DNA of 64,000 nucleotides from Candidatus Omnitrophota bacterium (GCA_043812955.1 JBDRLN010000064.1:326-64325), one strand, 5' to 3'. Counted from the first letter of the stretch, positions 147 through 41,180 are shown. Numbers and translations: made by a program. Notes: generated by a model from the sequence alone, not told the origin.

Positions 147-203
147 AGGGGACGTTTCTATTCTTTAAGTTTGTATTAAGTTGTAAAAAATAGAAGCGTC
201 CCC
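147..203. repeat. Family-A palindrome copy 1: GGGGACGTTTCTATTC ... AAAAATAGAAGCGTCCCC, ~16-18 bp stem with one mismatch and ~20-nt AT loop
   Basis: Inverted repeat read directly; flanked by partial copies GGAATGTTTC (131-140) and GGAATGTCCCC (221-231). Confidence 0.8.
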
Positions 204-238
204 TGTTTATAGGAATGTCCCCGGTTTTAATTTTTCTA

Positions 239-265
239 TTGACATATTAAGTTTTTTTGTATAAT
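239..265 (+). promoter_or_regulatory. sigma70-like promoter: TTGACA (239-244), 15-nt spacer, TGTATAAT (258-265)
   Basis: Consensus -35 and -10/extended -10 hexamers ~70 bp upstream of the 335 start, which follows the RBS AAAAAGGAGGGGG. Confidence 0.5.
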
Positions 266-334
266 ATACTAACATTAGTCCGGTATCCCTATCAGGGCAG
301 TTTAAATTCTGGATAATCAAAAAAGGAGGGGGAA

Positions 335-1291
335 GTGAGTATAAGAAAATGGAGCGGGTTGGGTCTGGTGATTGCGGTATTGATGTGCGTCAGCGTATCT
401 TGGGCAGCGCAGAAAAAGGTCCTTTTTATTGATGCTTATCATGAAGGATATGCCTGGAGCGATGGTGAGGTTCAAGGGGCAAAAGATACAATCGGCAATA
501 AAGCGGAGTTTAAAGTTATTCGTATGGATACCAAGCGTAACGGATCGGAAGATTTCAAGAAACAGGCAGCGCTTCAGGTCAAGGCCGTAATAGAATCTTA
601 CAAGCCTGATGTGGTTATTGCCGCGGATGATAATCCCTCTAAGTATGTTATTGTTCCTTATTATAAAGATTCGAACATTCCGTTTGTATTTATCGGGGTT
701 AACTGGGATGCTTCTAGTTACGGATTTCCCTGGCCTAATGTTACCGGTGTATTGGAGGTTTCTGTTGTGAAGCCTCTTATTGAAATGATGCGGACCTACG
801 CTAAGGGTGACCGTTTGGGATTTATCGGTAAAGACAATGAAACCGATCGTAAAGAAGCGGACAACTGGACCAAAAAGTATGGCGTAGCGCTTAATACCAG
901 ATTTGTAAATACTTTTGAAGAATGGAAGGCTGCTTACAAAGAGTTAAACGATCAGTGTGATATGCTCTTTGTGGTTAATAATGCCGGTATCAAGGATTGG
1001 AATGATGCTGAAGCAAAAGCTTTTGTCAGAGAAGTTACTAAAATACCCACCAGTAGCTCGCATGATTTTATAGCCCCGTTTGTTTTAATTGATTATGCCA
1101 AGCTGGCTGAGGAACAAGGCGAGATCGGAGCAGAGATAGCCTTACAGATATTAAATGGTAAATCACCTAAAGATATACCGGTAACTAATAATAAAAAAGG
1201 CCAGACTTATGTTAATTTGCCTATTGCGAAAAAACTAGGCATTAAGTTCACGCCTCAGTTTTTAAGATCGTGTAAAGTTATTAACGAATAA
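335..1291 (+). CDS. secreted/periplasmic substrate-binding-like protein (ABC-type SBP fold, possibly COG2984/PF04392-like); GTG start; N-terminal signal peptide
   Basis: Hydrophobic N-terminus LGLVIAVLMCVSVSWAA; alpha/beta SBP-like composition; no permease or ATPase partner nearby. Confidence 0.4.
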   Translation: MSIRKWSGLGLVIAVLMCVSVSWAAQKKVLFIDAYHEGYAWSDGEVQGAKDTIGNKAEFKVIRMDTKRNGSEDFKKQAALQVKAVIESYKPDVVIAADDNPSKYVIVPYYKDSNIPFVFIGVNWDASSYGFPWPNVTGVLEVSVVKPLIEMMRTYAKGDRLGFIGKDNETDRKEADNWTKKYGVALNTRFVNTFEEWKAAYKELNDQCDMLFVVNNAGIKDWNDAEAKAFVREVTKIPTSSSHDFIAPFVLIDYAKLAEEQGEIGAEIALQILNGKSPKDIPVTNNKKGQTYVNLPIAKKLGIKFTPQFLRSCKVINE

Positions 1292-1376
1292 GGCTGCGAA
1301 TATTATTGCAGTAATTGACGCTGGTTTTAAAATCGGAGGTAAAATCAGCAGTTTAAGAGGCTCGGAAAAAACCGGG

Positions 1377-4154
1377 TTGATGCAAAAAGGGGTCAATCCG
1401 GTTTTTTCTTTTTTTTCGATGAAAAATAAAAAAACTTTATTAATCTTCTTATTGTTTCTTATTTCCTATTCTTTATTTGCTGAGCCTGCTTTTTCTGCCT
1501 CTCAGGCGGCGGAATATCTCTGCGATTTAGGTGTATCTTTTTATAAGCGCGAGAGATATGAAGAGGCGCTTACTGAATTTAAAAAAGCGCTGCTGCTTGA
1601 ACCCGATAATAAAATAGCCTTAAATTATATTAATAATGTATTTAACCGGCCTGTCCAACAGGCAGCCTCGCCTGTCGAACAACCTGCTAAAATAATTGCC
1701 CCGCAAGTACCTATCTTAGAGAACAAAAAAGTGACGACTAGCCGGGATCAAGTTATTCTTAGCGCTTTAAATAGCTACAGTCCAGTCCAATCTCAGGATA
1801 AATCTATTAATCAAACTTTACCTATTGATCAAACCGATAAAGCAATCAGTTATATAAATAGCAATACAGCCCAAGGAAATTTCGGAGTTCTGGATGTACA
1901 CGGAGATATTGCCTTGGGCGTAGGTTTTACTTCCGACGATTTTATCTGGAAAGATGCCAATGCTGATAAAATAGGAGTACCCAGGGAGAAAAACTGGAGG
2001 TATCTGTGGGGAGACGAAAAACACAATACTTACGATAAAAGGATTTTTGACCGCCTGAATCTGGATATAGAGACCAAATATAATTCGCCCTGGAATGCTT
2101 TTATGGAAATAACCGTTGATCCCTGGACTTTTGTCAGCAAGAAAGATGTGACCTCTTACTCTAATGTGGGAGGAGATTTTGTAGATATGCGTTTTAAATA
2201 CTGGTCTGCGGATAGAAGGACCGCAAATGAAGTATACCGTTCCAATAAAGGTAACATCATTAATATTAAACAGAATAAGGTTGTTGATGGTAAAACTAGC
2301 TTAATTAACCCTACGGCTTTAAATGATTGGTTTACAGATTTTAACCAGATAGAGCAGCAAAAACTTAAGATGGAATATCGCCCCTTAAGAAAACTCTGGA
2401 TTAATTATATAGACGATGATTATACCCTTAAGATATTTCCTATTTCCGACCAATTCGAGGCTTTAACTACCGATGACCCATTAAGGTTATCCGATAACCG
2501 TCACTATTGGGAAGAGGGCGCCTGGCTGGATGAGTATGAACCCAGCCGAGTATTTTATCCGGACAGCGGCTTAAAACCGATTAAAAGAGGAAGATGGATC
2601 AGGCGGATGTCTTTTTTTACCAAAGACAGCAGTGATGATTACCCCCATAGACTTACGTTTCTTCGGGGCGCGACTTTTAAAACTAAAACCGACTCTTATT
2701 CCTTTCAGGCCACCGTTGCTACTCCGATGAGCCTCTGGGATAATTACGAAAATTCAAATAGCATTAATTATGCTGACCGTTTAAAAATTCCTTTGAATGA
2801 AGACCTACAAGTAGGAATGGTTAATACGGTAAAATTAGGTTTAAATAAAGGCAGTTTAGAAGCCCAAAACGAGGTAACCGGGCTGGATTTAAATTATAAT
2901 TTGGATTGTAATACTGTCTTCTCGGCAGAAGCGGCGGGAAGTTACACCAGAATAGGGGAAGATCCAGGTTTTTACACAGTTTATCATGGGTTGGCAGGTA
3001 AAGCCGGGGTGAAATATGATGAATCTAAAGAGAAAAAAGGAGGATTTTATAAGTCAGAGGTATACGCTGCCCATATGGGCAATAAATTCTTTCCGGGATT
3101 GTCAAATTACCGTTATACCAGATCCGATGATCCAACTTTTAGCCGCAACGTATATTTTGATGAAATAGGTGATATTAATATACCCCTTATCTGGGGCGAT
3201 GGCATGGACCGGGCCAGAAATGCTCTCGGCCTTAAATTTAATATCAAAGGCTTTGATGAAAGATTAGACAATGATATCAAATACCGTAATGTCCATGAAG
3301 ATACGGGTAAATATGTTGAATCGGTATTAAGAGTAGAGTCTACCTATAAGGCTAATCCGCGATTAACTACTAAATTGTTGGGCTATTATCAGCATCTTCC
3401 CAAAACCCACGCTAATCAAGACCCCCTGCTTTACTTAAAGACTATGTATTCTTTAACCGATTATTTTTCTGATGTAGATGCCCATCCTGAAAATTCGGTA
3501 ATTGTCGATGATAAAGATCCGTCGATTGGCGCATTCGGAGCAGGGGCCCATTATTACCTGATAGAAGAATGCCTTGCGGTTGAAGGGATATATCAGCGGA
3601 CCAATGACCCGCTGGATTTTCCCCGTGGTTTGTTAAACGATAACTATGTTACAACCGAAACCCGAGATGGGCATCTCTGGGATAAAGTTTCTCCGTTTTT
3701 ATACGACCAGAGTTTTTTTAGCACGCCACCTTATCGATATTATGATATTGCCCGGACCAGATTGATCTACACCCCGAATGAAAAATGGGAACATATCTTT
3801 AGATTTACTTATAATGAAAATAGATACGCCAGCGCCTTAAATTATAATCTTAACCACGCCGGATTAGAAACAACCTATAAACCAAATGAGAAATGGACGT
3901 TTTGGGGTTCATATATTTACTCTCGCCTAATCGATGTTTATAAACAGAATGAACACCAAAAGAGAGCGGGATTCTCCGATGACCACCATAACTTTTTTAT
4001 CGGTACGGAATATAAATTAAACAAAGACGAAGCCTTTAACCTTCTTTATGGCGAGTTTGTGGCCTATAAGGAGCCTTTTCAACAGGGAAATTGGTGCCTT
4101 TCGTCCTTAGATACCCAGCACATAGTCCGCGTATCTTACCGCCGGAAATTCTAA
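1377..4154 (+). CDS. large secreted protein: N-terminal TPR repeats, then ~800-aa beta-rich region ending in aromatic ...YRRKF (possible outer-membrane beta-barrel)
   Basis: Signal peptide MKNKKTLLIFLLFLISYSLFA; real start more likely Met at 1419; TPR motif EEALTEFKKALLLEPDN; C-terminal Phe typical of OMPs. Confidence 0.55.
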   Translation: MMQKGVNPVFSFFSMKNKKTLLIFLLFLISYSLFAEPAFSASQAAEYLCDLGVSFYKRERYEEALTEFKKALLLEPDNKIALNYINNVFNRPVQQAASPVEQPAKIIAPQVPILENKKVTTSRDQVILSALNSYSPVQSQDKSINQTLPIDQTDKAISYINSNTAQGNFGVLDVHGDIALGVGFTSDDFIWKDANADKIGVPREKNWRYLWGDEKHNTYDKRIFDRLNLDIETKYNSPWNAFMEITVDPWTFVSKKDVTSYSNVGGDFVDMRFKYWSADRRTANEVYRSNKGNIINIKQNKVVDGKTSLINPTALNDWFTDFNQIEQQKLKMEYRPLRKLWINYIDDDYTLKIFPISDQFEALTTDDPLRLSDNRHYWEEGAWLDEYEPSRVFYPDSGLKPIKRGRWIRRMSFFTKDSSDDYPHRLTFLRGATFKTKTDSYSFQATVATPMSLWDNYENSNSINYADRLKIPLNEDLQVGMVNTVKLGLNKGSLEAQNEVTGLDLNYNLDCNTVFSAEAAGSYTRIGEDPGFYTVYHGLAGKAGVKYDESKEKKGGFYKSEVYAAHMGNKFFPGLSNYRYTRSDDPTFSRNVYFDEIGDINIPLIWGDGMDRARNALGLKFNIKGFDERLDNDIKYRNVHEDTGKYVESVLRVESTYKANPRLTTKLLGYYQHLPKTHANQDPLLYLKTMYSLTDYFSDVDAHPENSVIVDDKDPSIGAFGAGAHYYLIEECLAVEGIYQRTNDPLDFPRGLLNDNYVTTETRDGHLWDKVSPFLYDQSFFSTPPYRYYDIARTRLIYTPNEKWEHIFRFTYNENRYASALNYNLNHAGLETTYKPNEKWTFWGSYIYSRLIDVYKQNEHQKRAGFSDDHHNFFIGTEYKLNKDEAFNLLYGEFVAYKEPFQQGNWCLSSLDTQHIVRVSYRRKF

Positions 4155-4160
4155 TAATTA

Positions 4161-4212
4161 GGGGACGTTTCTATTTTTTTATTTGAAAAATTTGAAAAAA
4201 TAGAAACGTCCC
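4161..4212. repeat. Family-A palindrome copy 2: GGGGACGTTTCTATTTTTTT ... AAAAAATAGAAACGTCCC, between convergent genes; likely bidirectional terminator
   Basis: ~18-bp perfect stem, T-rich 3' flank on + strand; sits between the stop at 4154 (+) and the stop at 4221 (-). Confidence 0.8.
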
Positions 4213-4220
4213 GTTTGATT

Positions 4221-7200
4221 TTATTCTAAATAAATATCGATTTTTTTGATTTGCCTGTTGCGGATTTGTTCGGCGTAAGGCGAGGGTATGATTTCAGAAG
4301 TTATTTCTTTGGTATTTCCGGCCTGGTCAGATAGTATTATCTTCTTTATAAGAGCAGCGGCCTTACCAAACGTATTTTTCCTTTCCGGGTTATGGTATAT
4401 AACCGTGATTTTACTTAAAAAATTGAAAGTATAAGTTCTATCCTTCGAGAATAACCATCGCGGGAGAATAGGGCAGAACTTTAAATTTAATTCGTTTTTG
4501 TTATTCAAAACAAACGGCTGTTTTCCGATATTCATAACTAACCAGATATTTAAAAATTCCGCAGTTGAGCCGGAAAGGCGGGCTACAAATCCATTTCCAT
4601 GCAGTTTTTTATCCGGAAATACGCTGCTGACTAAAAATGACGAATTCTCTAGAATGCTCCTGCCGTAAACTTCAGGTTTTTGGAAAGGAATAAGGCAATT
4701 TTTAAAATCCTGAAAAAATTCTTCATAGAGCCCGCATTTAAGCAGTTCCAACAGATATTTATACTCCATATGCAGCCAGATAGATTCATTCTCTAGCCAG
4801 CCGGGAGTAAACACCCTGCAGCGCCCGATTTCTTCCGGCATGCTAGCCAGAGAAGAAGTTACTTTATACATCTTAAGTTTTTTATCGTAGAGCTGGCTTT
4901 TAAGGATTGCCTTATACATATTCTGGGCTTGGGCTTTATCCATTAGTCTTAAAGCATGAAAAGGTCCTTCCAAAAAGAAAGGCACTTTTTTCTGTTCAAA
5001 TTTCGTAGGTTTAATAAAGGGTGGTTCTAGGCTAACGAATTCTTCGACCACATTTATAAAATAGGAATAGTAAATGTTTTCTTTATTATCCCAGGCTTTA
5101 TTTAATCCTGAGTCTAATTTTTTTAGCGTATCTTCAAGTATGGTGATCAGCTCATCCCTATTAACCTGTTTTTCTTTTCCACTGACTCCAAAGTTAGTCT
5201 TCTGCCGATATTCCTCTTTTAAGGTGTGGGTTTTATCCCAGAAAATAAAGTCTTTATCATTAGTGTCAGTAGTAAAGTATTCGCGGATCAAAGCGCCTAA
5301 GCCAAAGAGCAGATTATATATTTCTTCAGCCAGAAACACATTTTCTATACTGTTTTTTTTGAGGCTTTCTTTTAAGAATATGGCCAGCCTTTTTAATTCA
5401 AAGGTTTCGCAACTTGATGATCCAAAAAGCGCGGGTAGACCGTTTAAGGAATCAAACCAGTTGGGCTTATCCGCCTCCATTTCAATACCTATTCCCGAGG
5501 GGTCAAGAGAAGCCAGCTTATTAGCTAAGATGCAGATCAATTTACCCGCGCAAGTGGTTTTATAAACTTCGCCTTGACCATGATCAGTCCTGGCTAAGCG
5601 CGGTGAGCTTACACGATTTTCCAACATCACTTTTTTTGAATCGTCAAAACCAACGGAATGCAATTGTTTAGGTAACCCATTGAGAAGAAGATATTTCTGG
5701 CAGCGGGGTTTTATAAACGTAAAATAATCATAAAACGTAAAATCTTTCTTTTCAAAGGCTAATTCTTTTAATTTCTCAGGATAGATTGCCAGGTAGTTTT
5801 CTATCAAGTCCAGATTATAGGCCCAGTGGTCAGTCCAAAAACCTTCATGAAAACTGGCTTCCTGGGATTTTTGGCAGTGAGAAAGAAGAATATTAATGAA
5901 TTCATCGGGTTTTACCTTCAGTTTAATTATTTTTTCTTCAAAAAATATAATGACCTCGCCGGGAGTAAAAGATTTGCTGAAGAACTCCGCTGTTTCCGGA
6001 GTAATTTTTCCCTGAATAAGAGTTTCTAATACCAGAAAAAACTGCTCCGGATTAGTCAGCCTGAATAAAGCGCCTTTGACTACTAAAGGGTTAAATCCGT
6101 CCAGTTGAATCAAGTTTAAGAACATGGTAATGTTTTCATCAGTTACCTCAGGATTAAACCAGTTGTCGCACCTGCGATTCTGATTAATGTCGCGGTAATT
6201 ACCATTACCTTGGGAGAAATAAGTAGGATCAAGTTCGTACTTATTATAGTCCCTTTCCAGATCTCCGTGTTTGCGGGAATAGAGATAAAATATGGTTTTA
6301 TGGAGTTTAGACTTGAAGCTGACCGGATAGCCACCGCGCATAATATTATCCAGGTAAGTCTGTTTGGCATAAAGGTCGAATTCTCTCGACGAGCTGCGGG
6401 TCGATATATCGTTCTGCAAATTTTCGATGGTCTCTTTATTCTGTTTCTTCTTTAAGTCTAAATAGCCTGCCTTCGTTATGCGGGAGAGGGAGGAATTCAG
6501 TATTTTTAGGTTGCGCATATTCCCGATTATGGAGTAATAAGTCTTCTGGGAATTGGGAGGAAGTTCAAAATCCAGGTCCAGAAAAGCGCAGGGGGTTTTA
6601 TTCTGAGTTATCTGGTTCTTGGGATAACGGAAAATTTTATTGCCCAGGAAATGATAGGGACAGGAAAAATCGCTTACCGGCCCAAATATGCATTGAGGAT
6701 CGACTACAGGCTTGATAATCTTTGAATGATTATTTTTGTCAAAGTGAAAACCCAGGAAGAAATTACCCTCTTTGATATGGATGACTTGTGGGCGGTCGAT
6801 CGGGTCGACATCTACTTTAAAGAAAGGAACATGATTCTCCAAATTCTCAACTTTCATCCAGGCCTCGACCGTACGGCTTAGTTTTTTCAAAAACAGATTA
6901 TATATTCCATACGGGACTATTTTAGGCACACCGTCCAACAACTGAATTTTACGGGTTTTTTTACCGGTATTTTTTATGGTTACGATCCTGACCAAGCCGG
7001 CATAGGAATCTTGGGGGATATTAAAATATTCAACTTCGGTTTTAAGTCCGAGAGTGGTATTTTCTTCCTGGATATTCAGGTCATGCGAAGTAATGGACAT
7101 CCTGGTATTTAGGTCAAAATCTATATTAGTAAACCCGTTATGAAAGGGCTCGTAAAATATATTATCTTTAGAGGAGAGTATCTTTACAAAAGTGCGGAAT

Positions 7201-7457
7201 CCCAGCAAGGAGACTGATTCCCAGGCTTTATTCGCCGGAAGGAATTCTAATATAGCGTGGTCGCGGTTTTTGACTCCGAAACTAATAATTGCCTGGCCGC
7301 GGTTAACATAGAAGAGCCACATTGGTATGCCGTATTCTCCGGCAATGCCCGGGAAAAAGCTGGCAAACGGCTTGGCATAGTTGTAATTTTCAATAATAAA
7401 TTCGTCTTTATCGTTTAAATAATATTTCGGTTTTTTATTTTTAAAATTTTTTGTCAT
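4221..7457 (-). CDS. large (1078 aa) cytoplasmic hypothetical protein, possibly a glycoside hydrolase/phosphorylase-like multidomain enzyme
   Basis: Long uninterrupted ORF with good RBS (AAGGGAG) before its ATG; no TM or signal peptide; weak resemblance to (alpha/alpha)6 glycosidase/phosphorylase architecture only. Confidence 0.6.
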   Translation of the reverse strand: MTKNFKNKKPKYYLNDKDEFIIENYNYAKPFASFFPGIAGEYGIPMWLFYVNRGQAIISFGVKNRDHAILEFLPANKAWESVSLLGFRTFVKILSSKDNIFYEPFHNGFTNIDFDLNTRMSITSHDLNIQEENTTLGLKTEVEYFNIPQDSYAGLVRIVTIKNTGKKTRKIQLLDGVPKIVPYGIYNLFLKKLSRTVEAWMKVENLENHVPFFKVDVDPIDRPQVIHIKEGNFFLGFHFDKNNHSKIIKPVVDPQCIFGPVSDFSCPYHFLGNKIFRYPKNQITQNKTPCAFLDLDFELPPNSQKTYYSIIGNMRNLKILNSSLSRITKAGYLDLKKKQNKETIENLQNDISTRSSSREFDLYAKQTYLDNIMRGGYPVSFKSKLHKTIFYLYSRKHGDLERDYNKYELDPTYFSQGNGNYRDINQNRRCDNWFNPEVTDENITMFLNLIQLDGFNPLVVKGALFRLTNPEQFFLVLETLIQGKITPETAEFFSKSFTPGEVIIFFEEKIIKLKVKPDEFINILLSHCQKSQEASFHEGFWTDHWAYNLDLIENYLAIYPEKLKELAFEKKDFTFYDYFTFIKPRCQKYLLLNGLPKQLHSVGFDDSKKVMLENRVSSPRLARTDHGQGEVYKTTCAGKLICILANKLASLDPSGIGIEMEADKPNWFDSLNGLPALFGSSSCETFELKRLAIFLKESLKKNSIENVFLAEEIYNLLFGLGALIREYFTTDTNDKDFIFWDKTHTLKEEYRQKTNFGVSGKEKQVNRDELITILEDTLKKLDSGLNKAWDNKENIYYSYFINVVEEFVSLEPPFIKPTKFEQKKVPFFLEGPFHALRLMDKAQAQNMYKAILKSQLYDKKLKMYKVTSSLASMPEEIGRCRVFTPGWLENESIWLHMEYKYLLELLKCGLYEEFFQDFKNCLIPFQKPEVYGRSILENSSFLVSSVFPDKKLHGNGFVARLSGSTAEFLNIWLVMNIGKQPFVLNNKNELNLKFCPILPRWLFSKDRTYTFNFLSKITVIYHNPERKNTFGKAAALIKKIILSDQAGNTKEITSEIIPSPYAEQIRNRQIKKIDIYLE

Positions 7458-7569
7458 TTATTTACTCCCTTAAGACCCCATAATAATTAGGATAAACCGT
7501 CTAATATTTGATTAACCTATTTTACATAATTTTACGAATTTGTCTACATCTTTTCTGGATAATGATAAT

Positions 7570-7624
7570 GGGGTCAGAATTATTTTTTAATACCCTGGGT
7601 GTTTAAAAATAATTCTGTGACCCC
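7570..7624. repeat. Family-B palindrome: GGGGTCAGAATTATTTTTT ... AAAAATAATTCTGTGACCCC
   Basis: Perfect ~19-bp inverted repeat with 16-nt loop, downstream (in transcript sense) of the minus-strand gene start; a half-copy occurs at 41083-41101. Confidence 0.75.
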
Positions 7625-7639
7625 ATTTCTCAATACCTT

Positions 7640-7668
7640 TTGACTTTGGGTTCGAAAAGTGCTAAAAT
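7640..7668 (+). promoter_or_regulatory. sigma70-like promoter for gatCAB: TTGACT, 17-nt spacer, TGCTAAAAT (extended -10)
   Basis: Consensus spacing; ~30 bp upstream of the GTG start at 7699 with RBS TAGGAGAAAG. Confidence 0.5.
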
Positions 7669-15821: not shown

Positions 15822-15830
15822 CCTTTTTTT

Positions 15831-15863
15831 ACACCCCGTAGGTGTAATACACCTACGGGGTGT
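15831..15863. repeat. Family-C hairpin: ACACCCCGTAGGTGT-AAT-ACACCTACGGGGTGT (15-bp perfect stem, 3-nt loop) at the dgkA stop
   Basis: Read directly; a near-identical hairpin occurs at 59730-59762. Confidence 0.8.
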
Positions 15864-15881
15864 ACGGATAGATCAAGTTTT

Positions 15882-19602: not shown

Positions 19603-19724
19603 AAGCGGGGACGGTTCTGAAATCAAAGTAAAAGCCTGCCTGCCGGTGAGTCAGGTTCCTACTCTAGCTGGGAGGAGTAAAAGATTGTTTACCTAACTGT
19701 CCCTAGTGGCTCGAAAGAATAAAT

Positions 19725-24043: not shown

Positions 24044-24260
24044 AATATTGACGAGGCACAGGTTTCCCGCTTTATGCAGAAGTTCTCAAGCGGGATTTCG
24101 CCACGATGAGTTAATAAGGTGGCTCATCAAGTCCTGTCGCCCCGAATAAATGAGGACAGTTTCCCGCCAGATAGATAAATTGCCTGCGGGATCCCGACTG
24201 TTCAAGAGTGGGTGTCGGGTCAAGTCTGTCCGCCCCGAAATATTGACGAGGCACAGGTTG
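24026..24260 (+). repeat. ~2.5 degenerate tandem units (~95-100 bp); each is a copy of the tRNA-Pro 3' end (CAAGTCCTGTCGCCCCGA) plus a TTTCCCGC-loop-GCGGGAT hairpin
   Basis: 39-bp near-identical direct repeats at 24026-24064 and 24218-24260; a partial unit at 24124-24147; TCCCGC/GCGGGA hairpins at ~24063-24100 and ~24168-24205. Confidence 0.75.
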
Positions 24261-24266
24261 AAATTT

Positions 24267-24322
24267 GGGGACGTTTTTATTTTTTATGCCTTTATCAGTA
24301 GAAGAAAAATAGAAACGTCCCC
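24267..24322. repeat. Family-A palindrome copy 3: GGGGACGTTTTTATTTTTT ... AAAAATAGAAACGTCCCC
   Basis: Read directly; immediately upstream of the PilZ gene at 24351. Confidence 0.8.
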
Positions 24323-24350
24323 AAATAAACACGACTAGGAATAACCGGCC

Positions 24351-24704
24351 ATGGAAGAGCAGACCTATACAGATACTGAACGCAGGCAATTTGTAAGGAT
24401 GGATTATACGACTCCCTTGGCATATAAGGTATGCAAACAAGAAACCCTATCTAAAATATTAGAGGGATACACGGTAGATATAAGCCAGGCAGGATTACTT
24501 TGCAACTTAAAAGACTGGGTTAACATCGATGATGTTATGTGGCTCTCCTTTGAAAGAAGCGTATTGCGTATATTCGTAGAGCTGGAGAAAAGAAGCCTTA
24601 TTTATCAAAACGGCGTAATTGGCAAAGTGGTAAGAATACTGAATAACGATAATGGTTCTTATAATGTAGGCGTACAATTTCTGACCCGGGAAGAAAAAAT
24701 ATAG
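24351..24704 (+). CDS. single-domain PilZ (c-di-GMP receptor) protein
   Basis: PilZ motifs RRQFVR (RxxxR) and DISQAGL (DxSxxG); its stop lies 1 nt before the gpsA start. Confidence 0.7.
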   Translation: MEEQTYTDTERRQFVRMDYTTPLAYKVCKQETLSKILEGYTVDISQAGLLCNLKDWVNIDDVMWLSFERSVLRIFVELEKRSLIYQNGVIGKVVRILNNDNGSYNVGVQFLTREEKI

Positions 24705-32271: not shown

Positions 32272-33862
32272 TAATTTAAGCCGGAGGCATGAAATGCGCA
32301 AGATTCAAATATATGATACGACCTTAAGAGACGGATCCCAAGGCGAAGGTATTTCTTATTCGGTCAGCGATAAAGTGCGTATCGCTGAAGAATTAGACCT
32401 TTTGGGAGTTGATTATATTGAAGGCGGCTGGCCAGGTTCAAACCCGAAAGACATGGAATTCTTTTTAAAGATGTCCCAGAAGACCCTGAAAAATGCCCAA
32501 TTAACCGCTTTTAGTATGACTCGCAGGCCGAATATCAGAGCATCCCAGGACACGAATATAAAAGATTTGATCAAATCCCGGGTCAAGATCATAACCATTG
32601 TCGGTAAAACTTGGGATCTGCACGTCAGCGACGTTTTAAAAGTAACCTTGGATGAAAACCTGGAAATGATCAAAGATACTGTTTCTTTTTTAGTGTCTGC
32701 CGGCCTTACTGTTTTTTATGATGCTGAACATTTTTTTGACGCCTATAAGGCTAATAAGGAATACGCTTTAAAAACTATTGCCTTCTGCCAAGAGGCAGGG
32801 GCTAAAGCGGTTGTGCTCTGTGATACTAACGGTGGCTCGCTTCCTTCGGAGATTTCGCAGGTGATCAATCAAATCCTACCCTTAGTGAAAGTTCCCTTAG
32901 GTATTCACTGCCATAATGATTGCGGAATGGCTATAGCTAATTCAATCGCGGCAGTTGAATCCGGGGCTGATATGGTCCAGGGAACTATTAACGGTTATGG
33001 TGAACGCTGCGGTAACGCTGATCTGATCCCGGTTATCGCTAATCTCAGAATTAAGTTAGGACTTAAGGCGTTGGGCGAAGACAAATTAAAAGAATTAACC
33101 AAGGTCTCCCATTTTGTCAGTGAAATAAGCAATATGAAACAAAGGGATGACCAGCCTTTTGTGGGAGCCTCGGCATTTGCCCACAAAGGCGGAATGCACA
33201 TCAATGCGGTAATAAAGAACTCTCTGGCCTACGAGCATTGCGAGCCAGGGATCGTCGGTAACCATAGGAGATTCTTGATATCGGAGCTGGGAGGAAAAAC
33301 CGGGATAATGCTCAGGGCTAAAGCCATGGAATTTGACTTAAGCAAAGAGAATCCTCAGACCCAGAGAATACTTAAATTGATCCAGAACCTGGAACATCAA
33401 GGGTATCATTTTGAAGCGGCTGAGGCATCTTTTGAATTATTAATGAAGAGGGCGCTTAAGAAGTATAAAAAATTCTTTGAATTGCAGGGATTCAGGATTG
33501 TGATAGAGAAGATATCCAATAAAAAGATAACCTCGGAAGCGATCATAAAACTAAAGGTAAAGGGCAAAATGGAACATACCGCCGCTGAAGGGGATGGCCC
33601 GGTCAATGCCCTGGATAATGCCGTAAGAAAAGCCTTAAAAAATTTCTATCCCACATTGTCTAAAATGCATCTGGCGGACTTTAAGGTCCGGGTATTGGAT
33701 GAACAAGCCGGAACCGCGGCTAAAGTACGGGTATTAATTCAGTCTCAGGATGAAAAGGATGATTGGAATACCATCGGCGTGCATGAAAATATTATCGAGG
33801 CATCCTGGCAGGCGATGGTCGACAGTATCGAATATAAATTGCTTAAAGATAAAGTATCTTAA
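32258..33862 (+). CDS. cimA: citramalate synthase / 2-isopropylmalate synthase family (CimA-like, 534 aa)
   Basis: IYDTTLRDGSQGEGIS HMGL-like TIM barrel plus C-terminal LeuA dimerisation region. Confidence 0.8.
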   Translation: MAWDNNLSRRHEMRKIQIYDTTLRDGSQGEGISYSVSDKVRIAEELDLLGVDYIEGGWPGSNPKDMEFFLKMSQKTLKNAQLTAFSMTRRPNIRASQDTNIKDLIKSRVKIITIVGKTWDLHVSDVLKVTLDENLEMIKDTVSFLVSAGLTVFYDAEHFFDAYKANKEYALKTIAFCQEAGAKAVVLCDTNGGSLPSEISQVINQILPLVKVPLGIHCHNDCGMAIANSIAAVESGADMVQGTINGYGERCGNADLIPVIANLRIKLGLKALGEDKLKELTKVSHFVSEISNMKQRDDQPFVGASAFAHKGGMHINAVIKNSLAYEHCEPGIVGNHRRFLISELGGKTGIMLRAKAMEFDLSKENPQTQRILKLIQNLEHQGYHFEAAEASFELLMKRALKKYKKFFELQGFRIVIEKISNKKITSEAIIKLKVKGKMEHTAAEGDGPVNALDNAVRKALKNFYPTLSKMHLADFKVRVLDEQAGTAAKVRVLIQSQDEKDDWNTIGVHENIIEASWQAMVDSIEYKLLKDKVS

Positions 33863-36544
33863 ATGCCTGAACTTGACAAGCAGTATAACCCCAAAGAAAC
33901 CGAAGATAAATGGTATAAATTCTGGGAAGAAAATAACCTCTTTGCTGCAAAACCTCAATCCCCTAAAAAACCATTCAGCATAGTAATTCCGCCTCCTAAT
34001 GTAACCGGCATCCTGCATATGGGCCATGCCCTGAATAATACTATTCAGGACATTCTCATCCGCTATCATAGGATGAAAGGGGAAGAATCATTATGGATGC
34101 CCGGGACTGACCACGCCGGGATCGCTACCCAGAATGTAGTGGAGAAATCAATTGCTAAAGACGGACTGAAGCGTCAGGATCTAGGCCGGGATAAATTTAT
34201 CCAGAGGGTCTGGCAATGGAAGGAAGAATACGGCTCGACCATTATCCGTCAGCTTAAAAAATTAGGGTCTTCCTGTGATTGGCAGAGGATCCGCTTTACC
34301 ATGGATGAAGAATACTCGAAATCCGTGGTCGAGGTTTTTGTTAGGCTTTATGAAAAAGGCCTGATCTATCAAGGCAATTATATTATCAACTGGTGCCCGC
34401 GCTGCCAAACCGCGCTATCCGATGAAGAAGCCCCTCACCATGAGCTCCAGGGAAATTTATATTATTTACGATATCCGCTTAAAGATTACCCGCAAGATTT
34501 CGTAGTTGTTGCAACTACCCGTCCGGAAACAATGCTGGGGGATACTGCGGTAGCAGTAAATCCTAAAGACAAACGCTACCAGAAATTAATCGGTAAAATC
34601 CTTATCCTGCCGCTGATTAAGCGCGAAATTAAAATTATCGCTGATTCTATGGTAGATACAAAATTCGGTACAGGGGCGGTTAAGGTTACTCCGGCCCATG
34701 ACCCGAATGATTACGCTTTAGGCAAAAAACACAACCTGGAATTCGTGAATGTAATGTATCCTGATGCCCGAATGAATCAAAATGCCGCAGATTATAAAGA
34801 TATGGACAGGTTTGAAGCTAGAGAGGTCATCCTGGAAGATTTAAAAGAACAGGGGCTTTTAGAAAAAATCGAACCTCATAATTTGTCCGCCGGACACTGC
34901 TACCGCTGTCACACCATAATCGAACCTTATCTATCCAAACAGTGGTTTGTGAAAATGAAACCTTTGGCTATACCGGCTATAGAGGTAGTTAAAAAAGGTA
35001 AAATAAAATTTTATCCCAGCCGCTGGACTAAAGTTTATCTTAACTGGATGGAGAATATCCAGGATTGGTGCATATCCCGTCAGATCTGGTGGGGACATCG
35101 CTTGCCGGTATATTATTGTAAGGATTGCCTGCAACAAGCCTGCGGGTCCACAGTCCACAAAGTCCATCAGTCCACAACAAACAGAAAAGGTATAATAGTT
35201 TCCTGCGTAAAACCTGAAAAATGCCCAGACTGCGGCTCAAGCGATATATATCAGGATGAGGATGTCTTAGATACCTGGTTTTCTTCCTGGCTCTGGCCTT
35301 TTGCAACTTTTAGAAGTGAATTAGACCTGAAATATTTCTATCCCACTTCAACCCTGGTAACTGCTCCTGAAATAATTTTCTTCTGGGTAGCCAGAATGAT
35401 CATGGCTGGGATGGAATTCCTAAAAGACATCCCCTTTAAAGATGTCTACATCCACGGCACTGTCAGGGATATAGAAGGTAAAAAAATGTCCAAATCATTG
35501 GGAAATATAATTGATCCCTTGGAAATTATTAATGAATACGGAACTGATGCCCTGCGTTTCAGCTTAATTTCTATAACTGCCCAGGGCCAGGATGTATTCC
35601 TCTCTAAGGAAAGGTTTGAACAGGGAAGGAATTTTGCTAATAAGATCTGGAATGCCTCCAGATTTATCCTGATGAACCTGGGATCCGAGAATACAAAAGC
35701 AGATCTATGTGCTTTCTTTAAACAAGAGCGATTAGATACGGCTAATCGCTGGATCTTAAGCCGTTTTTACTCAACAGTTAAACAAGCCTATAAATTACTG
35801 GATAACTACCGTTTTAATGAAGCGCTGAACCTGCTTTATCATTTTTTTTGGCATGAATTTTGCGATTGGTATTTAGAGATCATCAAAGCGGATATCAAAA
35901 ACCCCCATAATCAGGTAGTGATGTATAAAATACTGGAAAAATTCTTAAAGGCAATTCATCCTTTTATGCCTTTTATCAGCGAAGAGATTTGGCAAAAACT
36001 TCCCCATCAGGACATATCAATAATGGTTACACGGGTTGTGCATATCCAGGAAGAGATTATTGATAAAAAAATTGAAAATAAAATGGCTTTGTTGCTTGAA
36101 TTAATTACTACCATTAGGAATATGCGCTGGGAATTAGAGATATTACCCCAGGCCTGCGTAGATGTCAAAATCTGTACTTTAAACAAGGCTAATAGGGCTT
36201 TTATAGGGCAATCTTCGGCTTGCGTTAAAAACCTGGCAAAACTAATGAATCTTGTTTTAGAATCAGAATATGGGCCTGCGCAGGGTCAATTTGCCGTGGT
36301 TTTAAAGGATATGCACGTGGTTATTCCTCTTGCCGGACTGATAGATATTGAAAAATATAAGCAAAAAACATGGGAAAGAATCAAAAAAACCGATTCCGAT
36401 ATTAAAGCCAAAGGAATAATGTTGGCAAATAAAGATTTTGTTAAAAGGGCTCCCGCGCACATCGTAGAAAAGGAGAAACTTAAACTCCAGGAACTTAATG
36501 AAACCCTTAATAAACTGAAAGGAGTCATCCATGGCCTTGGATAA
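33863..36544 (+). CDS. valS: valine--tRNA ligase
   Basis: HMGH and KMSKS motifs, editing domain, C-terminal coiled coil. Confidence 0.95.
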   Translation: MPELDKQYNPKETEDKWYKFWEENNLFAAKPQSPKKPFSIVIPPPNVTGILHMGHALNNTIQDILIRYHRMKGEESLWMPGTDHAGIATQNVVEKSIAKDGLKRQDLGRDKFIQRVWQWKEEYGSTIIRQLKKLGSSCDWQRIRFTMDEEYSKSVVEVFVRLYEKGLIYQGNYIINWCPRCQTALSDEEAPHHELQGNLYYLRYPLKDYPQDFVVVATTRPETMLGDTAVAVNPKDKRYQKLIGKILILPLIKREIKIIADSMVDTKFGTGAVKVTPAHDPNDYALGKKHNLEFVNVMYPDARMNQNAADYKDMDRFEAREVILEDLKEQGLLEKIEPHNLSAGHCYRCHTIIEPYLSKQWFVKMKPLAIPAIEVVKKGKIKFYPSRWTKVYLNWMENIQDWCISRQIWWGHRLPVYYCKDCLQQACGSTVHKVHQSTTNRKGIIVSCVKPEKCPDCGSSDIYQDEDVLDTWFSSWLWPFATFRSELDLKYFYPTSTLVTAPEIIFFWVARMIMAGMEFLKDIPFKDVYIHGTVRDIEGKKMSKSLGNIIDPLEIINEYGTDALRFSLISITAQGQDVFLSKERFEQGRNFANKIWNASRFILMNLGSENTKADLCAFFKQERLDTANRWILSRFYSTVKQAYKLLDNYRFNEALNLLYHFFWHEFCDWYLEIIKADIKNPHNQVVMYKILEKFLKAIHPFMPFISEEIWQKLPHQDISIMVTRVVHIQEEIIDKKIENKMALLLELITTIRNMRWELEILPQACVDVKICTLNKANRAFIGQSSACVKNLAKLMNLVLESEYGPAQGQFAVVLKDMHVVIPLAGLIDIEKYKQKTWERIKKTDSDIKAKGIMLANKDFVKRAPAHIVEKEKLKLQELNETLNKLKGVIHGLG

Positions 36545-37385
36545 ACTAGACCCTCGTAAGATAGAAAGCATAGTTAAACAAGCTTTAGTTGAAGATATTG
36601 GCAAAGGAGATATTACCACTCAGTTAACTATCCCTAAAGATAAACTTATTAAAGGAACAGTGCTGGCTAAAGAAGATTGCGTAGTTTGCGGATTAGATAT
36701 AATGGAGGCGGCTTTTAAAACCGTAGATAAAAATATTAAATTCTCTCCTCAGGCTAAAGAGGGACATAAAGTTAAGAAAGGGAAGGCGATTGCCCTGGTA
36801 GAAGGCAAGGCCCAAAATATTCTTAGCGCTGAGCGGGTAGGATTGAATTTATTATCCCTGCTTTCATCCGTAGCCACTAAAACCAGGGAATATGTGGATA
36901 GGATTGAACCATCTAAAGTAAAGATCTCGGATACCCGTAAGACCATTCCCGGTTTGAGGGACCTGCAAAAATACGCGGTCAGGGTAGGAGGAGGACATAA
37001 CCACCGCATGAGCCTGGATGAAATGGTCCTAATCAAAGACAACCATATCAAGGTTACCGAGGGATATTCCAAACTTCCTATCGTGCCTAAAGGCTTTAAG
37101 ATTGAGGTAGAGGTTCAAAATCTGGAAGAATTTAAACATGCGCTTAAATTTAAGCCGGATTTTATTATGCTGGACAATATGGATATAGCCGATATGAAAA
37201 AAGCTGTAGAGATACTTAATAATACTCTTTTTAAAAGCCATCATCCCCGGACAAAACTTGAAGCCTCGGGAGGAGTTAATCTGGATAATATTAAGGAGAT
37301 TGCCTCAACCGGAGTAGATATAATCTCCATCGGAGACATTACTCATTCCATAAAATCGGTTGACATATCCCTAGAAGTTGAATGA
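36531..37385 (+). CDS. nadC: nicotinate-nucleotide pyrophosphorylase (carboxylating)
   Basis: QPRTase family; Gly-rich GGG motif MVLIKDNH...ASGGV. Confidence 0.9.
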   Translation: MALDKLDPRKIESIVKQALVEDIGKGDITTQLTIPKDKLIKGTVLAKEDCVVCGLDIMEAAFKTVDKNIKFSPQAKEGHKVKKGKAIALVEGKAQNILSAERVGLNLLSLLSSVATKTREYVDRIEPSKVKISDTRKTIPGLRDLQKYAVRVGGGHNHRMSLDEMVLIKDNHIKVTEGYSKLPIVPKGFKIEVEVQNLEEFKHALKFKPDFIMLDNMDIADMKKAVEILNNTLFKSHHPRTKLEASGGVNLDNIKEIASTGVDIISIGDITHSIKSVDISLEVE

Positions 37386-38215
37386 AAAGAATAGTATTAC
37401 CGGTAGCGGTATTTTTATTCAGCGCCATATTCATTTATTCCCTTCGTGCCCAAAATTTCGCGAAAAAACCTCAGGAAAAAATATCCCTGTCTGAGCCTCA
37501 AAAATCATTAGTTAAAGGCGAAACCCTTGAATACTCGGTTGAGTGGCTAGGTATACCCTCCGGGGTAATAATTTTTAATGTCGTAGGTACATTTAACTAC
37601 AAGGGAAGAGAATGCTATTATCTGAAATTCTGGGCTAGACTAAATAATTTTTTTGCCAGGTTTTATGATGTTGAATACAACATCGAAAGCTTTGTAGACG
37701 TTGAGCATTTTTATCCCTATTATTATATAAAGAGGAGCCGTTACCGGAATAAATTATGTGTTGAAACGATTGAATTTGACCGCTTGGCCAATACTGCTAA
37801 AACCACTATCGACGGAATAACCGAGGACCTGATAAACTCGTCGTTAAAAAATAAAGTCAAACAACCCCGTACTTCGCTGATCAATGAAAAAAGCCTTGAT
37901 CCGCTTTCCGCAATTTATTTCCTGCGCCTTCAGGATATCGCGCTTAATCAGGAGACCGGATTCTTTATTTACCATGATCGTTCCAATTGGCAGGTTAGCG
38001 TAAAATCAGACGCTCCATATTTAAGAGACTTGCGCAGGATTGGAACGCTGGCGATTATAGAATTAACTCCGCAGTCCAGCCTCACAGGTTTTGTTTTCGG
38101 AAAAAATAACGCGAATATTTATCTAACCCCGGATTCCCGGCGTATCCCGGTAGAATTCAGTGCAAACACAGCTATAGGCTTTATCCGGGCCCGGATCAAA
38201 AAAATCCCTAATTAA
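37382..38215 (+). CDS. DUF3108-like secreted protein
   Basis: Signal peptide; LEYSVEWLGIPSGV motif typical of DUF3108. Confidence 0.6.
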   Translation: MKRIVLPVAVFLFSAIFIYSLRAQNFAKKPQEKISLSEPQKSLVKGETLEYSVEWLGIPSGVIIFNVVGTFNYKGRECYYLKFWARLNNFFARFYDVEYNIESFVDVEHFYPYYYIKRSRYRNKLCVETIEFDRLANTAKTTIDGITEDLINSSLKNKVKQPRTSLINEKSLDPLSAIYFLRLQDIALNQETGFFIYHDRSNWQVSVKSDAPYLRDLRRIGTLAIIELTPQSSLTGFVFGKNNANIYLTPDSRRIPVEFSANTAIGFIRARIKKIPN

Positions 38216-38216
38216 A

Positions 38217-40196
38217 ATGGATGGATTCAAACTAACCTCGCGTTACAAACCCCGCGGAGACCAGCCTAAAGCGATACAAGGATTAAATCAAAGCGTTTTA
38301 AGTAGGAATAAATATCAGACCCTTTTAGGCGTAACCGGTTCAGGTAAAACCTTTACCCTGGCAAATATTATCCATAAGGTAAATCTCCCTACCCTGGTAA
38401 TATCTCATAATAAAACCCTGGCCGCCCAGTTATATTCTGAATTTAAGGAATTCTTTCCCCATAATGCCGTGGAATATTTTGTCAGCTACTATGATTATTA
38501 TCAGCCAGAGGCCTACATGCCAGCAACCGATACCTATATTGAAAAAGACGCTTCCATTAATGACCGACTGGACCGCCTGCGCTTATCCGCTACCAGTAGC
38601 CTGATGTCCCGCCAGGACGTGATTATCATAGCCTCGGTATCCTGCATTTACAATCTAGGTTCGCCTGAAGAATACCGGGAATCCCTAGTTTTTATAGAAA
38701 GAGGTGAAGTTGCCTCCAGGGATAGCCTGATCTCCCGCTTTATCCGGATACAATATGAGCGTAATGATTATGAATTTGTAAGAGGCAGGATCCGGGTAAG
38801 AGGGGATGTAGTAGAAATTTACCCAACTTATAGCGAAAAAGCCCTGCGCCTGGAATTCTTTGGTGATATAATTGAAAAAATACAGGAAATAGACCCGGTA
38901 TCTGCGAAAGTTTTAAATCAGTTAGAAAAAATTGCTGTTTATCCGGCAAAACATTTTATCGCCCCATCTGACAGGATTGATAGCGCAATTAAATCAATCG
39001 AATCAGAACTTAAGGTTCAATTCGACTTCTTAAAAGGCAAAAATAAGCTCTTGGAAGCCCAGCGCCTGGAATCCCGGACTAAATACGACATGGAGATGCT
39101 AAAAGAAATCGGTTATTGTCACGGGATCGAGAATTATTCCCGCCAACTCTCAAACCGGCCCGCCGGCTCAAGGCCGTATTGTTTGATCGATTATTTCCCT
39201 AAAAAATTCTTAACCATTATAGACGAATCCCATGTAACTATACCTCAAATTAGAGGAATGTATAACGGGGATAAGGCCAGAAAGGAAACTCTGGTGGATT
39301 ATGGTTTTAGGCTTCCATCCTGCTTAGATAACAGACCTTTAAAATTTAGCGAATTTGAAAAGGTCATCCAGCAGGTTATTTTTACCTCAGCTACTCCGGA
39401 TGAATATGAAACTAAGAAAAGCAAAAATAAAATATTTGAACAAATAATCCGGCCTACCGGGTTAGTTGACCCACAAATCATCATCAGGCCTACCGAAGGG
39501 CAGATCCCAGATTTAATCCAGGAGGTTAAGAAACGGTCTAAGCAAAACAGCCGGATCTTATTAACTACCTTGACTAAAAGAATGGCCGAAGATTTGACCA
39601 GTTACCTTCAAGAAAAAGGACTTAAGGTTAAATATTTGCATTCCGAGATCAAAACTATCGAACGCTCTAAAATACTCAGAGCCTTAAGGCGGAAGGAATT
39701 TGACTGCCTGGTAGGGATTAATCTTTTAAGAGAAGGTCTGGATCTACCCGAAGTATCCTTGGTAGCGATCTTAGACGCGGATAAAGAAGGCTTCCTACGA
39801 TCGGCAACATCACTGATCCAGGTTTCCGGGAGGGCGGCCCGCAATATTAACGGCTGCGTAATAATGTACGCCGATACAATAACTGGATCAATGAAAAAAG
39901 CGATTACCGAAAGCTCACGGCGCAGGAAGATCCAACTGGAATTTAACCGGAATAATAAAATCACTCCTAAAGGAATAGTAAAAGCGATAAAATCAGGAAT
40001 AGAGGATATGGAAAGCGCGGAAGAATTTGTCCAAGACCTTACAGGTGTGAAAAAAGAGGAATACGAGTTGAAAAATTATATTTCCGAGTTAGAATATGAG
40101 ATGGAATTAGCCAGCCGTAACCTGCATTTTGAAAAAGCGGCTCAGCTAAGGGACAAGATAAAAGACATTAAAGACAGCCTGAAGTCTAAAGGCTAA
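38217..40196 (+). CDS. uvrB: excinuclease ABC subunit B
   Basis: Walker A GVTGSGKTFT, helicase motifs, C-terminal UVR domain. Confidence 0.95.
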   Translation: MDGFKLTSRYKPRGDQPKAIQGLNQSVLSRNKYQTLLGVTGSGKTFTLANIIHKVNLPTLVISHNKTLAAQLYSEFKEFFPHNAVEYFVSYYDYYQPEAYMPATDTYIEKDASINDRLDRLRLSATSSLMSRQDVIIIASVSCIYNLGSPEEYRESLVFIERGEVASRDSLISRFIRIQYERNDYEFVRGRIRVRGDVVEIYPTYSEKALRLEFFGDIIEKIQEIDPVSAKVLNQLEKIAVYPAKHFIAPSDRIDSAIKSIESELKVQFDFLKGKNKLLEAQRLESRTKYDMEMLKEIGYCHGIENYSRQLSNRPAGSRPYCLIDYFPKKFLTIIDESHVTIPQIRGMYNGDKARKETLVDYGFRLPSCLDNRPLKFSEFEKVIQQVIFTSATPDEYETKKSKNKIFEQIIRPTGLVDPQIIIRPTEGQIPDLIQEVKKRSKQNSRILLTTLTKRMAEDLTSYLQEKGLKVKYLHSEIKTIERSKILRALRRKEFDCLVGINLLREGLDLPEVSLVAILDADKEGFLRSATSLIQVSGRAARNINGCVIMYADTITGSMKKAITESSRRRKIQLEFNRNNKITPKGIVKAIKSGIEDMESAEEFVQDLTGVKKEEYELKNYISELEYEMELASRNLHFEKAAQLRDKIKDIKDSLKSKG

Positions 40197-40336
40197 AATT
40201 AAAAGTCTAAAGGACGAATAAAGATTAAAGGTAAAAGATAAAAAGTATAAAATCATATGTTTAAATCTTTGATCTTGGAGTTTTGGTCTTCCTTTAAGAT
40301 TTAAACTCCAATCTTTAAACCTTAAGGTCACTAAAT

Positions 40337-41071
40337 ATGTTATTAGCACTCGATATAGGTAATACTAACATAGCTCTAGGCGTATTCACCAATAACCAAC
40401 TTATTAGAAAATACGCCATTCCCACTAAAATTAAAGATTATTACCCGGATTTAAAAAAAATTACTCGGAAAAACAGAATTACCAGCTGCATCATCTGCAG
40501 CGTTGTTCCGAAGGTAACTAAACGATTAACCTGGGCGCTTAGAAAAGCAGCAGTTAAGAAAATCGGGGTCTGCGGCGTTCATCGTAAAATCCCGATTAAA
40601 AACCTTTACCACTATCCTAGCCAGGTTGGCCAAGACAGATTAGTAAACGCTTATGCCGCTATATCTCTTTACCGATCTCCGGCAATTATCATAGATTTCG
40701 GAACCGCAATAACCTTTGATGTTGTTTCCGCTAAAAAAGAATATAAGGGAGGGCTGATCATTCCCGGATTAGGAATCTCTTTGGAGACCCTGGCGGAGAA
40801 TACCGCACTTTTGCCGAAAGTTAAATTAGCTAAACCCCGTGAGCTTATTGGCCAAGATACCCGCAATAGCATTTTAAGCGGAATAATCTATGGATATAGT
40901 ACGCTAACTGACGGCTTAATCAGGAAACTAAAAACCAACCTCAATAATAAACCCATAGTTATCGGCACTGGCGGTAATATTAAACTGATAGCTGATTACT
41001 GCCGGGAAATAGATAAAATAGACATCAATCTCACCCTCAAAGGCCTTTCTTTAATCTCTAAATCTACGTAG
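40337..41071 (+). CDS. coaX: type III pantothenate kinase
   Basis: N-terminus LLALDIGNTNIALG. Confidence 0.9.
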   Translation: MLLALDIGNTNIALGVFTNNQLIRKYAIPTKIKDYYPDLKKITRKNRITSCIICSVVPKVTKRLTWALRKAAVKKIGVCGVHRKIPIKNLYHYPSQVGQDRLVNAYAAISLYRSPAIIIDFGTAITFDVVSAKKEYKGGLIIPGLGISLETLAENTALLPKVKLAKPRELIGQDTRNSILSGIIYGYSTLTDGLIRKLKTNLNNKPIVIGTGGNIKLIADYCREIDKIDINLTLKGLSLISKST

Positions 41072-41106
41072 AGATGGGAAGAAACGGGGTCAGAATTTTT
41101 TTTAAT

Positions 41107-41163
41107 TAGGGGACGTTTCTATTTTTAATTACTTTAAAAGAAAAAAATAGAAACGTCCCCTAA
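41107..41163. repeat. Family-A palindrome copy 4: GGGGACGTTTCTATTTTT ... AAAAATAGAAACGTCCCC, followed by partial direct repeat TCGTCCCCTAAT
   Basis: Read directly; preceded by a half-copy of family B (GGGGTCAGAATTTTTTTT, 41083-41101). Confidence 0.8.
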
Positions 41164-41180
41164 TCGTCCCCTAATTTTGC

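Follow-up and report, generated by a model that had tools for sequence, protein, structure and literature searches.

An intergenic hairpin family of Omnitrophota that is probably REPIN-like and mobilized by a REP-associated tyrosine transposase

Repetitive extragenic palindromes (REPs) of E. coli are imperfect palindromes of ~35 nt with a GTAG head and short loops; they sit after stop codons and stabilize or terminate transcripts. To our knowledge, systems in which REPs or hairpin-forming REP doublets (REPINs) are paired with a REP-associated tyrosine transposase (RAYT) have been worked out almost entirely in Proteobacteria; the phylum Omnitrophota is uncultured, and its cells are very small and may depend on hosts. 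REP/BIME (bacterial interspersed mosaic element) DNA of E. coli is reportedly served by TnpA-REP (RayT, PDB 4ER8), which Ton-Hoang et al. and Messing et al. are said to have described, both in 2012. Here, a family of intergenic hairpins, family A, was analyzed in a 64,000-nt stretch of DNA (the window; Candidatus Omnitrophota bacterium, GCA_043812955.1 JBDRLN010000064.1:326-64325), a chromosomal stretch of housekeeping genes with 40% GC from a metagenome-assembled genome (MAG). Proteins encoded in the window agree at 100% with NCBI entries for Omnitrophota; an exact look-up of window proteins returned no record. Four hairpins in the window, every one intergenic, have the arm GGGGACGTTTCTATTTTT in common. 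By analogy with the known systems, these are probably a REPIN-like REP family mobilized in trans by a RAYT, which is a known kind of element in a lineage new for it. As in the TnpA-REP system, an HUH/Y1 enzyme gene has hairpin-forming extragenic repeats beside it, and there is no target-site duplication. Unlike E. coli REPs, family A has arms of 18-25 nt and loops of 17-20 nt, and the similarity of its proteins to TnpA-REP is remote.

REPIN-RAYT pairs are described from Pseudomonas fluorescens and Enterobacteria (Bertels & Rainey 2011, PMC3116915, PMC3337134; Bertels et al. 2017, PMC5581495). In these papers, only RAYT groups 2 and 3 accompany abundant flanking 16-mers, and inheritance is vertical (PMC3116915, PMC3337134, PMC5581495). 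The elements analyzed here share with these pairs the inverted units that form a hairpin over a short spacer, the single units as remnants and the extragenic position. Further likenesses are, in some genomes, a sequence population among the copies, the non-autonomous nature of the repeats, a Y1 gene flanked by repeats, and an apparent pairing of different repeat families with different RAYT types.

The four hairpins of the window had been pointed out in an earlier note as perfect palindromes sharing an ~18-bp arm with variable AT-rich loops. They were found at almost the coordinates first given (Table 1). Eight matches to the GGGGACGTTTCTATTTTT arm with at most three mismatches were counted in the window, compared with 0.21 expected and a maximum of one in 100 shuffles, and the family-A arms deviate from their consensus at 4 of 144 positions. 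The loops (16-20 nt) are AT-rich and indeed mutually unrelated, with an identity of 0.60 among copies versus 0.55 for shuffled loops. Perfection holds unreservedly for copy 4 and over 18 nt for copy 2, where the outermost pair is G/G and the perfect 18 nt are shifted by one base. It does not hold for copy 1 (two arm mismatches, one of them a G.U wobble on the plus strand) or for copy 3 (one mismatch, U.G on the plus strand). Folded as RNA, the four hairpins reach -23 to -41 kcal/mol (z-scores between -5.6 and -7.6). The elements are non-coding and non-autonomous.

The gene positions agree with the earlier placement of copies 1, 3 and 4 ahead of promoters or genes and of copy 2 between convergent genes. 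Copy 1 lies 35 nt before the promoter TTGACA(239)-17-TAATAT of an ABC substrate-binding gene (335-1291). Copy 2 occupies the gap between the genes 1377-4154 (plus strand, TPR protein) and 4221-7457 (minus strand). Copy 3 follows a tRNA-Thr/Tyr/Pro cluster and lies 25 nt ahead of a PilZ gene (24351-24704). Copy 4 separates coaX (40337-41071) from the conserved promoter region, with TTGACA at 41181, that belongs to an HTH_17 gene (41259-41447).

Whether the motif is confined to the window had been raised with its first description. It is not. An exact scan for the 18-mer over species-representative genomes (596 Gb), whose counts are lower bounds, found it in at least 113 stretches of other genomes from at least 57 assemblies, mostly labelled Omnitrophota. 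The GC content of the hosts among the matches listed is 38-69%. Some matching MAGs are labelled 'Planctomycetales' but share 79-88% identical proteins with Omnitrophota MAGs and are therefore mislabelled; another group is nominally 'Aminicenantes' (65-67% GC). About 12 single matches in unrelated phyla fit the chance expectation, which is ~17 matches for an 18-mer in 596 Gb. The motif was found neither on viral contigs (exact scan of IMG/VR) nor on plasmids (blastn against PLSDB). Rfam gave no family at gathering scores and, below threshold, only generic hairpins resembling miRNA precursors. A full-text literature search returned nothing on the GGGGACGTTTCTATTTTT motif or on such repeats in Omnitrophota. 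An 18-mer that stays invariant across such varied base composition could serve as a marker for binning and strain typing, and recurrent 'conserved intergenic hairpins' can be explained in annotation without a new RNA gene.

The motif loci were read as 8-kb blocks of their genomes, and up to five family-A sites per 8 kb were seen in other MAGs. In one block (L074, 1300-2650) five or six genes in tandem encode small Cys-rich peptides (M.YKIKK.WKQP..., 56-68 aa), each gene being followed by one single family-A unit; the peptides look like precursors of ribosomally synthesized and post-translationally modified peptides. Units also lie within very long open reading frames (ORFs; >1,100 to >2,600 aa) at L039 3432 and 4315, L092 3958 and L060 2894, so the motif can occupy coding DNA of giant genes; the two units of L039 have similar flanks. 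In MAG JAUYBI01 (L023, L002, L058), hairpins with extended conserved flanks stand between small accessory genes on one strand (Bro-N, ORF6N, AAA_14/DUF4143, a nucleotidyltransferase with an HTH domain). This layout recalls a cassette array, and no integrase was seen in the blocks examined, L023 with its cassette-like genes between copies included. Integron attC sites were rejected as a candidate: the arms have no R''/R' core sites (RYYYAAC / GTTRRRY), and the copies are dispersed among housekeeping genes.

Further support for a REP-like element is provided by transposase genes beside the units. Y1 genes were found by phmmer with an IS200 TnpA query and then by jackhmmer. A Y1_Tnp gene (Pfam E = 2.7e-18) is present in four motif loci, each from a different assembly (L052, L045, L019 and L027). 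The best NCBIfam model for these genes is NF047646, the REP-associated tyrosine transposase (63-71 bits, against 21-30 bits for IS200). The top match among solved structures in a profile search was 4er8_A, E. coli TnpA-REP (E = 6e-5), and all of the proteins share the HUH histidines and the catalytic tyrosine. Units lie on both sides of the gene in L052 and L045, the two loci in which both sides are visible, and on the visible side in L019 and L027. All four RAYT genes have a like-oriented unit at the 5' end, compared with 11% of genes in motif loci. Clustering of ~800 neighboring ORFs yielded only common families (response regulators, ABC ATPases, pilus genes) and no recurrent transposase.

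A second RAYT type (40% identical) is encoded in L114/L116, directly preceded by a unit resembling family B, a second hairpin family described below (L114 13700-13717). It surfaced in a metagenome scan with the TPR protein, in relatives at 41% identity that are free of the motif. This pairing suggests one enzyme type per repeat family. In addition, a small conserved hairpin, CCCTCTTCCAC-GTCTATT..-GTGGAAGGGGG, was noticed between the upstream unit and the RAYT start in L052 (4098-4148) and L019 (7508-7573), where it may be a regulatory leader of the transposase.

Among the motif loci, 108 inverted arm pairs (hairpins) and 67 lone arms were counted, and the loop lengths of the pairs have a sharp maximum at 17-20 nt. 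Ahead of GGGG, outside the searched 18-mer, six or seven bases are 60-83% A, and those after CCCC are therefore T-rich. A unit thus described comprises ~24 nt, an A-rich run of 6-7 nt and then GGGGACGTTTCTATTTTT, and the hairpin consists of two inverted units with a ~17-20-nt loop. The palindrome usually reaches 3-7 nt into the flanks, which vary between copies but agree across the two sides of one copy. In 103 distinct hairpins, 93 arm changes are one-sided; where both arms are changed, complementarity is kept in nine cases and broken in none. Tandem duplication of one arm and half-arms beside hairpins are common. In the genome CAWDSS, 16 of 18 loops match one consensus in both orientations, and JAUYBI has six near-identical loops. 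Whole hairpins, loops included, form a sequence population around a master sequence in these two genomes, in both orientations.

Conserved inverted arms around varying inner sequence, arm pairs that in some cases enclose 164-276 nt, and the presence or absence of copies between relatives would also suit miniature inverted-repeat transposable elements (MITEs) of a cut-and-paste (DDE) transposon, with the 18-mer as terminal inverted repeat. However, no target-site duplication was found at family-A copies at any offset from 0 to 8. No DDE transposase is encoded among the ~800 neighboring ORFs, and Y1 is the sole transposase type found adjoining units. A MITE origin is very improbable.

Syntenic DNA of relatives was located with coaX, gpsA and TPR-protein homologues. 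The closest relative, JBGGGU010000011.1, shows 78-86% protein identity to the window, and its syntenic DNA is without all four window copies: two sites are empty and two have different hairpins. At site 1 it has a T-rich spacer and no hairpin (L127). At site 2 the same stretch has CCCGCACCTTCT...AGAAGGTGCGGG in place of copy 2, an unrelated hairpin set precisely in the convergent gap, and another relative (L128) has no hairpin there. Copy 3 lies within a ~190-nt block that only the window genome has; L123, L124 and L125 lack it. Site 4 holds a complete family-B hairpin in the closest relative (L119), of which the window retains only the left arm; L121 has an empty 75-nt spacer, and L122 a variant A hairpin whose two arms have changed in a compensating way. 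No family-A unit was present in 183 kb of relatives that had been fetched regardless of the motif. Family-A copies appear and vanish at intergenic sites on the time scale of ~80-85% protein identity, being gained, lost and replaced between close relatives. Since all four sites differ and the 183 kb contain no unit, the family is patchy and dynamic and not a fixed host signal.

Occurrence elsewhere, turnover, the missing target-site duplication, populations that include the loops, and adjoining RAYT genes all favor the REP-like reading that the earlier note had offered among others. In the proposed mechanism, a REP-associated tyrosine (Y1/HUH) transposase would recognize the folded single-stranded hairpin, cut and rejoin one strand, and so spread the hairpin in trans, as TnpA-REP does on REP/BIME DNA. 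Old copies decay to single arms and half-arms. When transcribed, the hairpin would probably also act as a bidirectional terminator or 3'-end protector, which may explain why copies are tolerated or kept.

Several observations weigh against this reading. One AT-rich 18-mer spans genomes of 38-69% GC, far wider than known REP families; it occurs in very divergent genomes yet is missing from a close relative, whereas the REPIN-RAYT pairs described so far are reported to be inherited vertically and to have lineage-specific sequences. The GTAG/GTGG head of classical REPs is absent, the unit beginning with GGGG after an A-tract, and a single unit is not itself palindromic. The family-A RAYT is more distant, with NF047646 scores under the curated RAYT cut-off of 80 bits. 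In two of the four RAYT loci adjacency is weak evidence because the loci are locally unit-dense. No RAYT gene is present in the 64 kb of the window or in 62 kb of the closest relative, so the link to an enzyme rests on analogy with other genomes. Finally, the window loops, unlike the spacers of REPIN-RAYT systems, are unrelated despite nearly identical arms, and recent copying of whole doublets predicts otherwise.

The unrelated loops, together with arms that deviate so rarely, hint that selection acts on existing arms, or that the enzyme may copy single arms while the second arm is made locally by fold-back; if true, the latter would be a mode of propagation not described for REPs. A bolder extension, which we consider doubtful, is that family A is the REPIN population of an old RAYT lineage with one 18-nt recognition sequence across much of Omnitrophota and possibly beyond. 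The arms would then be under selection at individual sites while the loops drift, and the hairpins would have been co-opted as a standard bidirectional terminator/insulator in genomes otherwise without classical terminators. Family A would in any case offer a natural test of horizontal movement of REPIN-RAYT pairs.

The hairpins could instead be purely host-encoded, immobile bidirectional intrinsic terminators or 3'-end RNA stabilizers whose sequence is kept by a lineage-specific factor. Indeed, the consensus of A-tract, GC-clamped stem and T-tract (mean 5/8 T) has the shape of a bidirectional terminator, the median distance from the upstream stop codon to a copy is ~10 nt, and some loci have a copy at nearly every gene boundary. 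Copy 2 occupies a convergent junction, in which a relative has a different hairpin, and classical terminators are not in excess in the window (20, 26 and 23, versus 20.9, 22.5 and 20.3 in shuffles). However, tandem, convergent and divergent gaps are occupied in numbers (57/9/6) that match those expected from the background (54/8/10), and divergent promoters surround one copy that is conserved in two species. T-tracts downstream are not superior to A-tracts upstream, and intrinsic terminators rarely have loops as long as the 16-20 nt seen here. In the window only copy 2 has a good U-tract, and copy 3 is without one on the transcribed strand. A strand test for selection at the RNA level (G.U versus A.C) gave 13 versus 10, which is not significant. 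The closest relative has none of the four copies, and a host terminator leaves the RAYT adjacency unexplained. An immobile host signal is accordingly held to be quite unlikely. A role as bidirectional terminator or RNA 3' hairpin, judged from base composition and position, is plausible as a side effect of a REPIN-like element, and family A is a candidate for the missing terminators of Omnitrophota genomes.

In another explanation, a dimeric regulator would bind the hairpin as double-stranded DNA, which would then be an operator or insulator. A promoter-like site follows closely downstream of copies 1 and 4 and of the family-B copy, in ~10/273 units TTGAC starts are concentrated 6-12 nt beyond the arms, and a promoter of at least 10/12 faces outward in 17 units versus inward in five. 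Yet the spacing between arms, which would be the half-sites, spans 1 to 66 nt and more, most copies lie at gene 3' ends, and the neighboring genes are functionally unrelated. The promoter beside site 4 is invariant across relatives, including those without a hairpin. A regulator-bound site is thus very improbable. The unit itself was also tried, and rejected, as a sigma-54, extracytoplasmic function (ECF) or sigma-70 promoter: it has no -12 GC, promoters in the two arms would point at one another, and the real promoters lie outside the hairpin.

Short intergenic repeats are also known from Neisseria, where Correia elements (NEMIS/CREE) have TA duplications and 26-bp terminal repeats around a ~100-nt core, and the DNA uptake sequence (DUS), a 10-12-mer, occurs ~1 per kb, genes included. 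Like Correia elements and DUS pairs, family A consists of short intergenic inverted repeats that would be co-transcribed, form long hairpins that may terminate or be processed, and have a clade-wide sequence; unlike them, it has no target duplication, no density of ~1 per kb and no presence in window genes. An uptake signal of the DUS type, or of the Haemophilus uptake signal sequence (USS) type, often placed as inverted pairs in terminators, would agree with a GC core between AT-rich flanks, with inverted pairs at gene ends, with type IV pilus genes that recur near copies, and with 'dialects' by genome (GGGGACGCTTC in every JBDRIY copy). The idea was rejected because of the low density: with 8 arms in 64 kb, there is ~1 for every 8 kb. 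Arm-core 7-8-mers are over-represented in the window because of the hairpin sites only; outside hairpins they are not enriched, and none occurs in window coding DNA. In addition, the motif is absent from the 183 kb of relatives, and whole hairpins with their loops are copied in some genomes. This is the least credible of the explanations, with next to no probability in our view.

Table 1. Hairpins, partial arms and transposase loci (positions counted from the first base of the window; for the L-numbered loci, within the locus)
Feature	Location	Strand	Description
Family-A copy 1	148..203	.	arms 148-165 and 186-203, 20-nt AT-rich loop
Family-A copy 2	4161..4213	.	perfect over 4162-4179 / 4195-4212
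Family-A copy 3	24263..24326	.	core 24267-24322, palindrome extends past the core
Family-A copy 4	41105..41164	.	perfect palindrome, core 41109-41160, 22-nt arms, 16-nt loop
Degenerate half-arm GGGAATGTTTC	130..140	+	left of copy 1
Degenerate half-arm GGAATGTCCCC	212..222	+	right of copy 1
Arm-like CGTCCCCTAATT	41165..41176	+	directly 3' of copy 4
Decaying variant hairpin	19607..19704	.	left arm GGGGACGGTTCTG 19607-19619; degenerate right arm ~19693-19704
Complete family-B hairpin (GGGGTCAGAATTATTTTTT...)	7567..7627	.	between divergent genes
Lone family-B left arm, GGGGTCAGAATT-T-run	41086..41108	+	abuts copy 4
RAYT locus L052	4149-4754 (Y1 gene)		unit, 51 nt, Y1 gene, hairpin 1 nt past stop
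RAYT locus L045			three tandem units, Y1 gene, hairpin
RAYT locus L019			hairpin, then Y1 gene
RAYT locus L027			unit 31 nt upstream of frameshifted Y1 gene

The partial arm duplicates reported earlier beside copies 1 and 4 are real. The two half-arms at copy 1 pair with each other in its RNA fold, and the left one belongs to a ~95-nt block missing in L127. The arm-like sequence beside copy 4 has orthologues in L122 (GGTCTCCTAATT) and L121 (CCTCTCCTTATTAATT) and is therefore probably older than copy 4, not made together with it. Because these counterparts occur in relatives without the copy-4 hairpin, insertion may prefer arm-like or hairpin targets. The single-mismatch relative of the arm at 19607, previously described as having no partner arm, begins 5 nt past the ftsH stop and does have a decayed right partner, CTAACTGTCCCT. 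Its intact orthologue is found in L123 (4537-4611, AGGGACGGTTCTG...CAGAACCGTCCCT), and there is none in L124.

Family B has the same build as family A. Its complete window copy lies 13 nt upstream of a promoter-like TTGACT-17-TAAAAT, and further copies lie in L011 (1101-1159) and L119 (10812-10874).

A third palindrome family, (T)ACACCCCGTAGGTGT(A), occurs in the window at 15830-15864 and 59729-59763 and in L123 at 471-509. It has 17-nt arms with a 1-nt spacer and an internal GTAG, and each arm is itself a small hairpin. Both window copies begin at or just past stop codons, and the first is conserved at the orthologous site of a relative with compensating A/C changes; no match was found in 118 other loci.

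In the region 24044-24260, ahead of copy 3, a ~85-nt element (~24064-24147) after tRNA-Pro ends in a second copy of the T-arm/acceptor 3' half of that tRNA. Neither ARAGORN nor Rfam called it. Its conservation in all relatives examined makes a function probable and an origin as an integration scar less so. Only the window has a third copy of the tRNA 3' half (24221-24259), which is followed by the same 20 nt.

Two inverted repeats are unrelated to family A: 1365-1408 (GAAAAAACCGG...CCGGTTTTTTC) lies over the start of the TPR gene, and 40259-40306 (GTTTAAATCTT...AAGATTTAAAC) between uvrB and coaX. At the latter site, relatives have a different double hairpin, GGGACACCCTT..AAGGGTGTCCC (L119 9991-10076, L121 916-1001). 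Finally, a sigma-70 promoter matching the consensus at 12/12 positions (TTGACA-17-TATAAT, 51797-51825) overlaps an imperfect palindrome (51824-51869) ahead of the gene at 51870.

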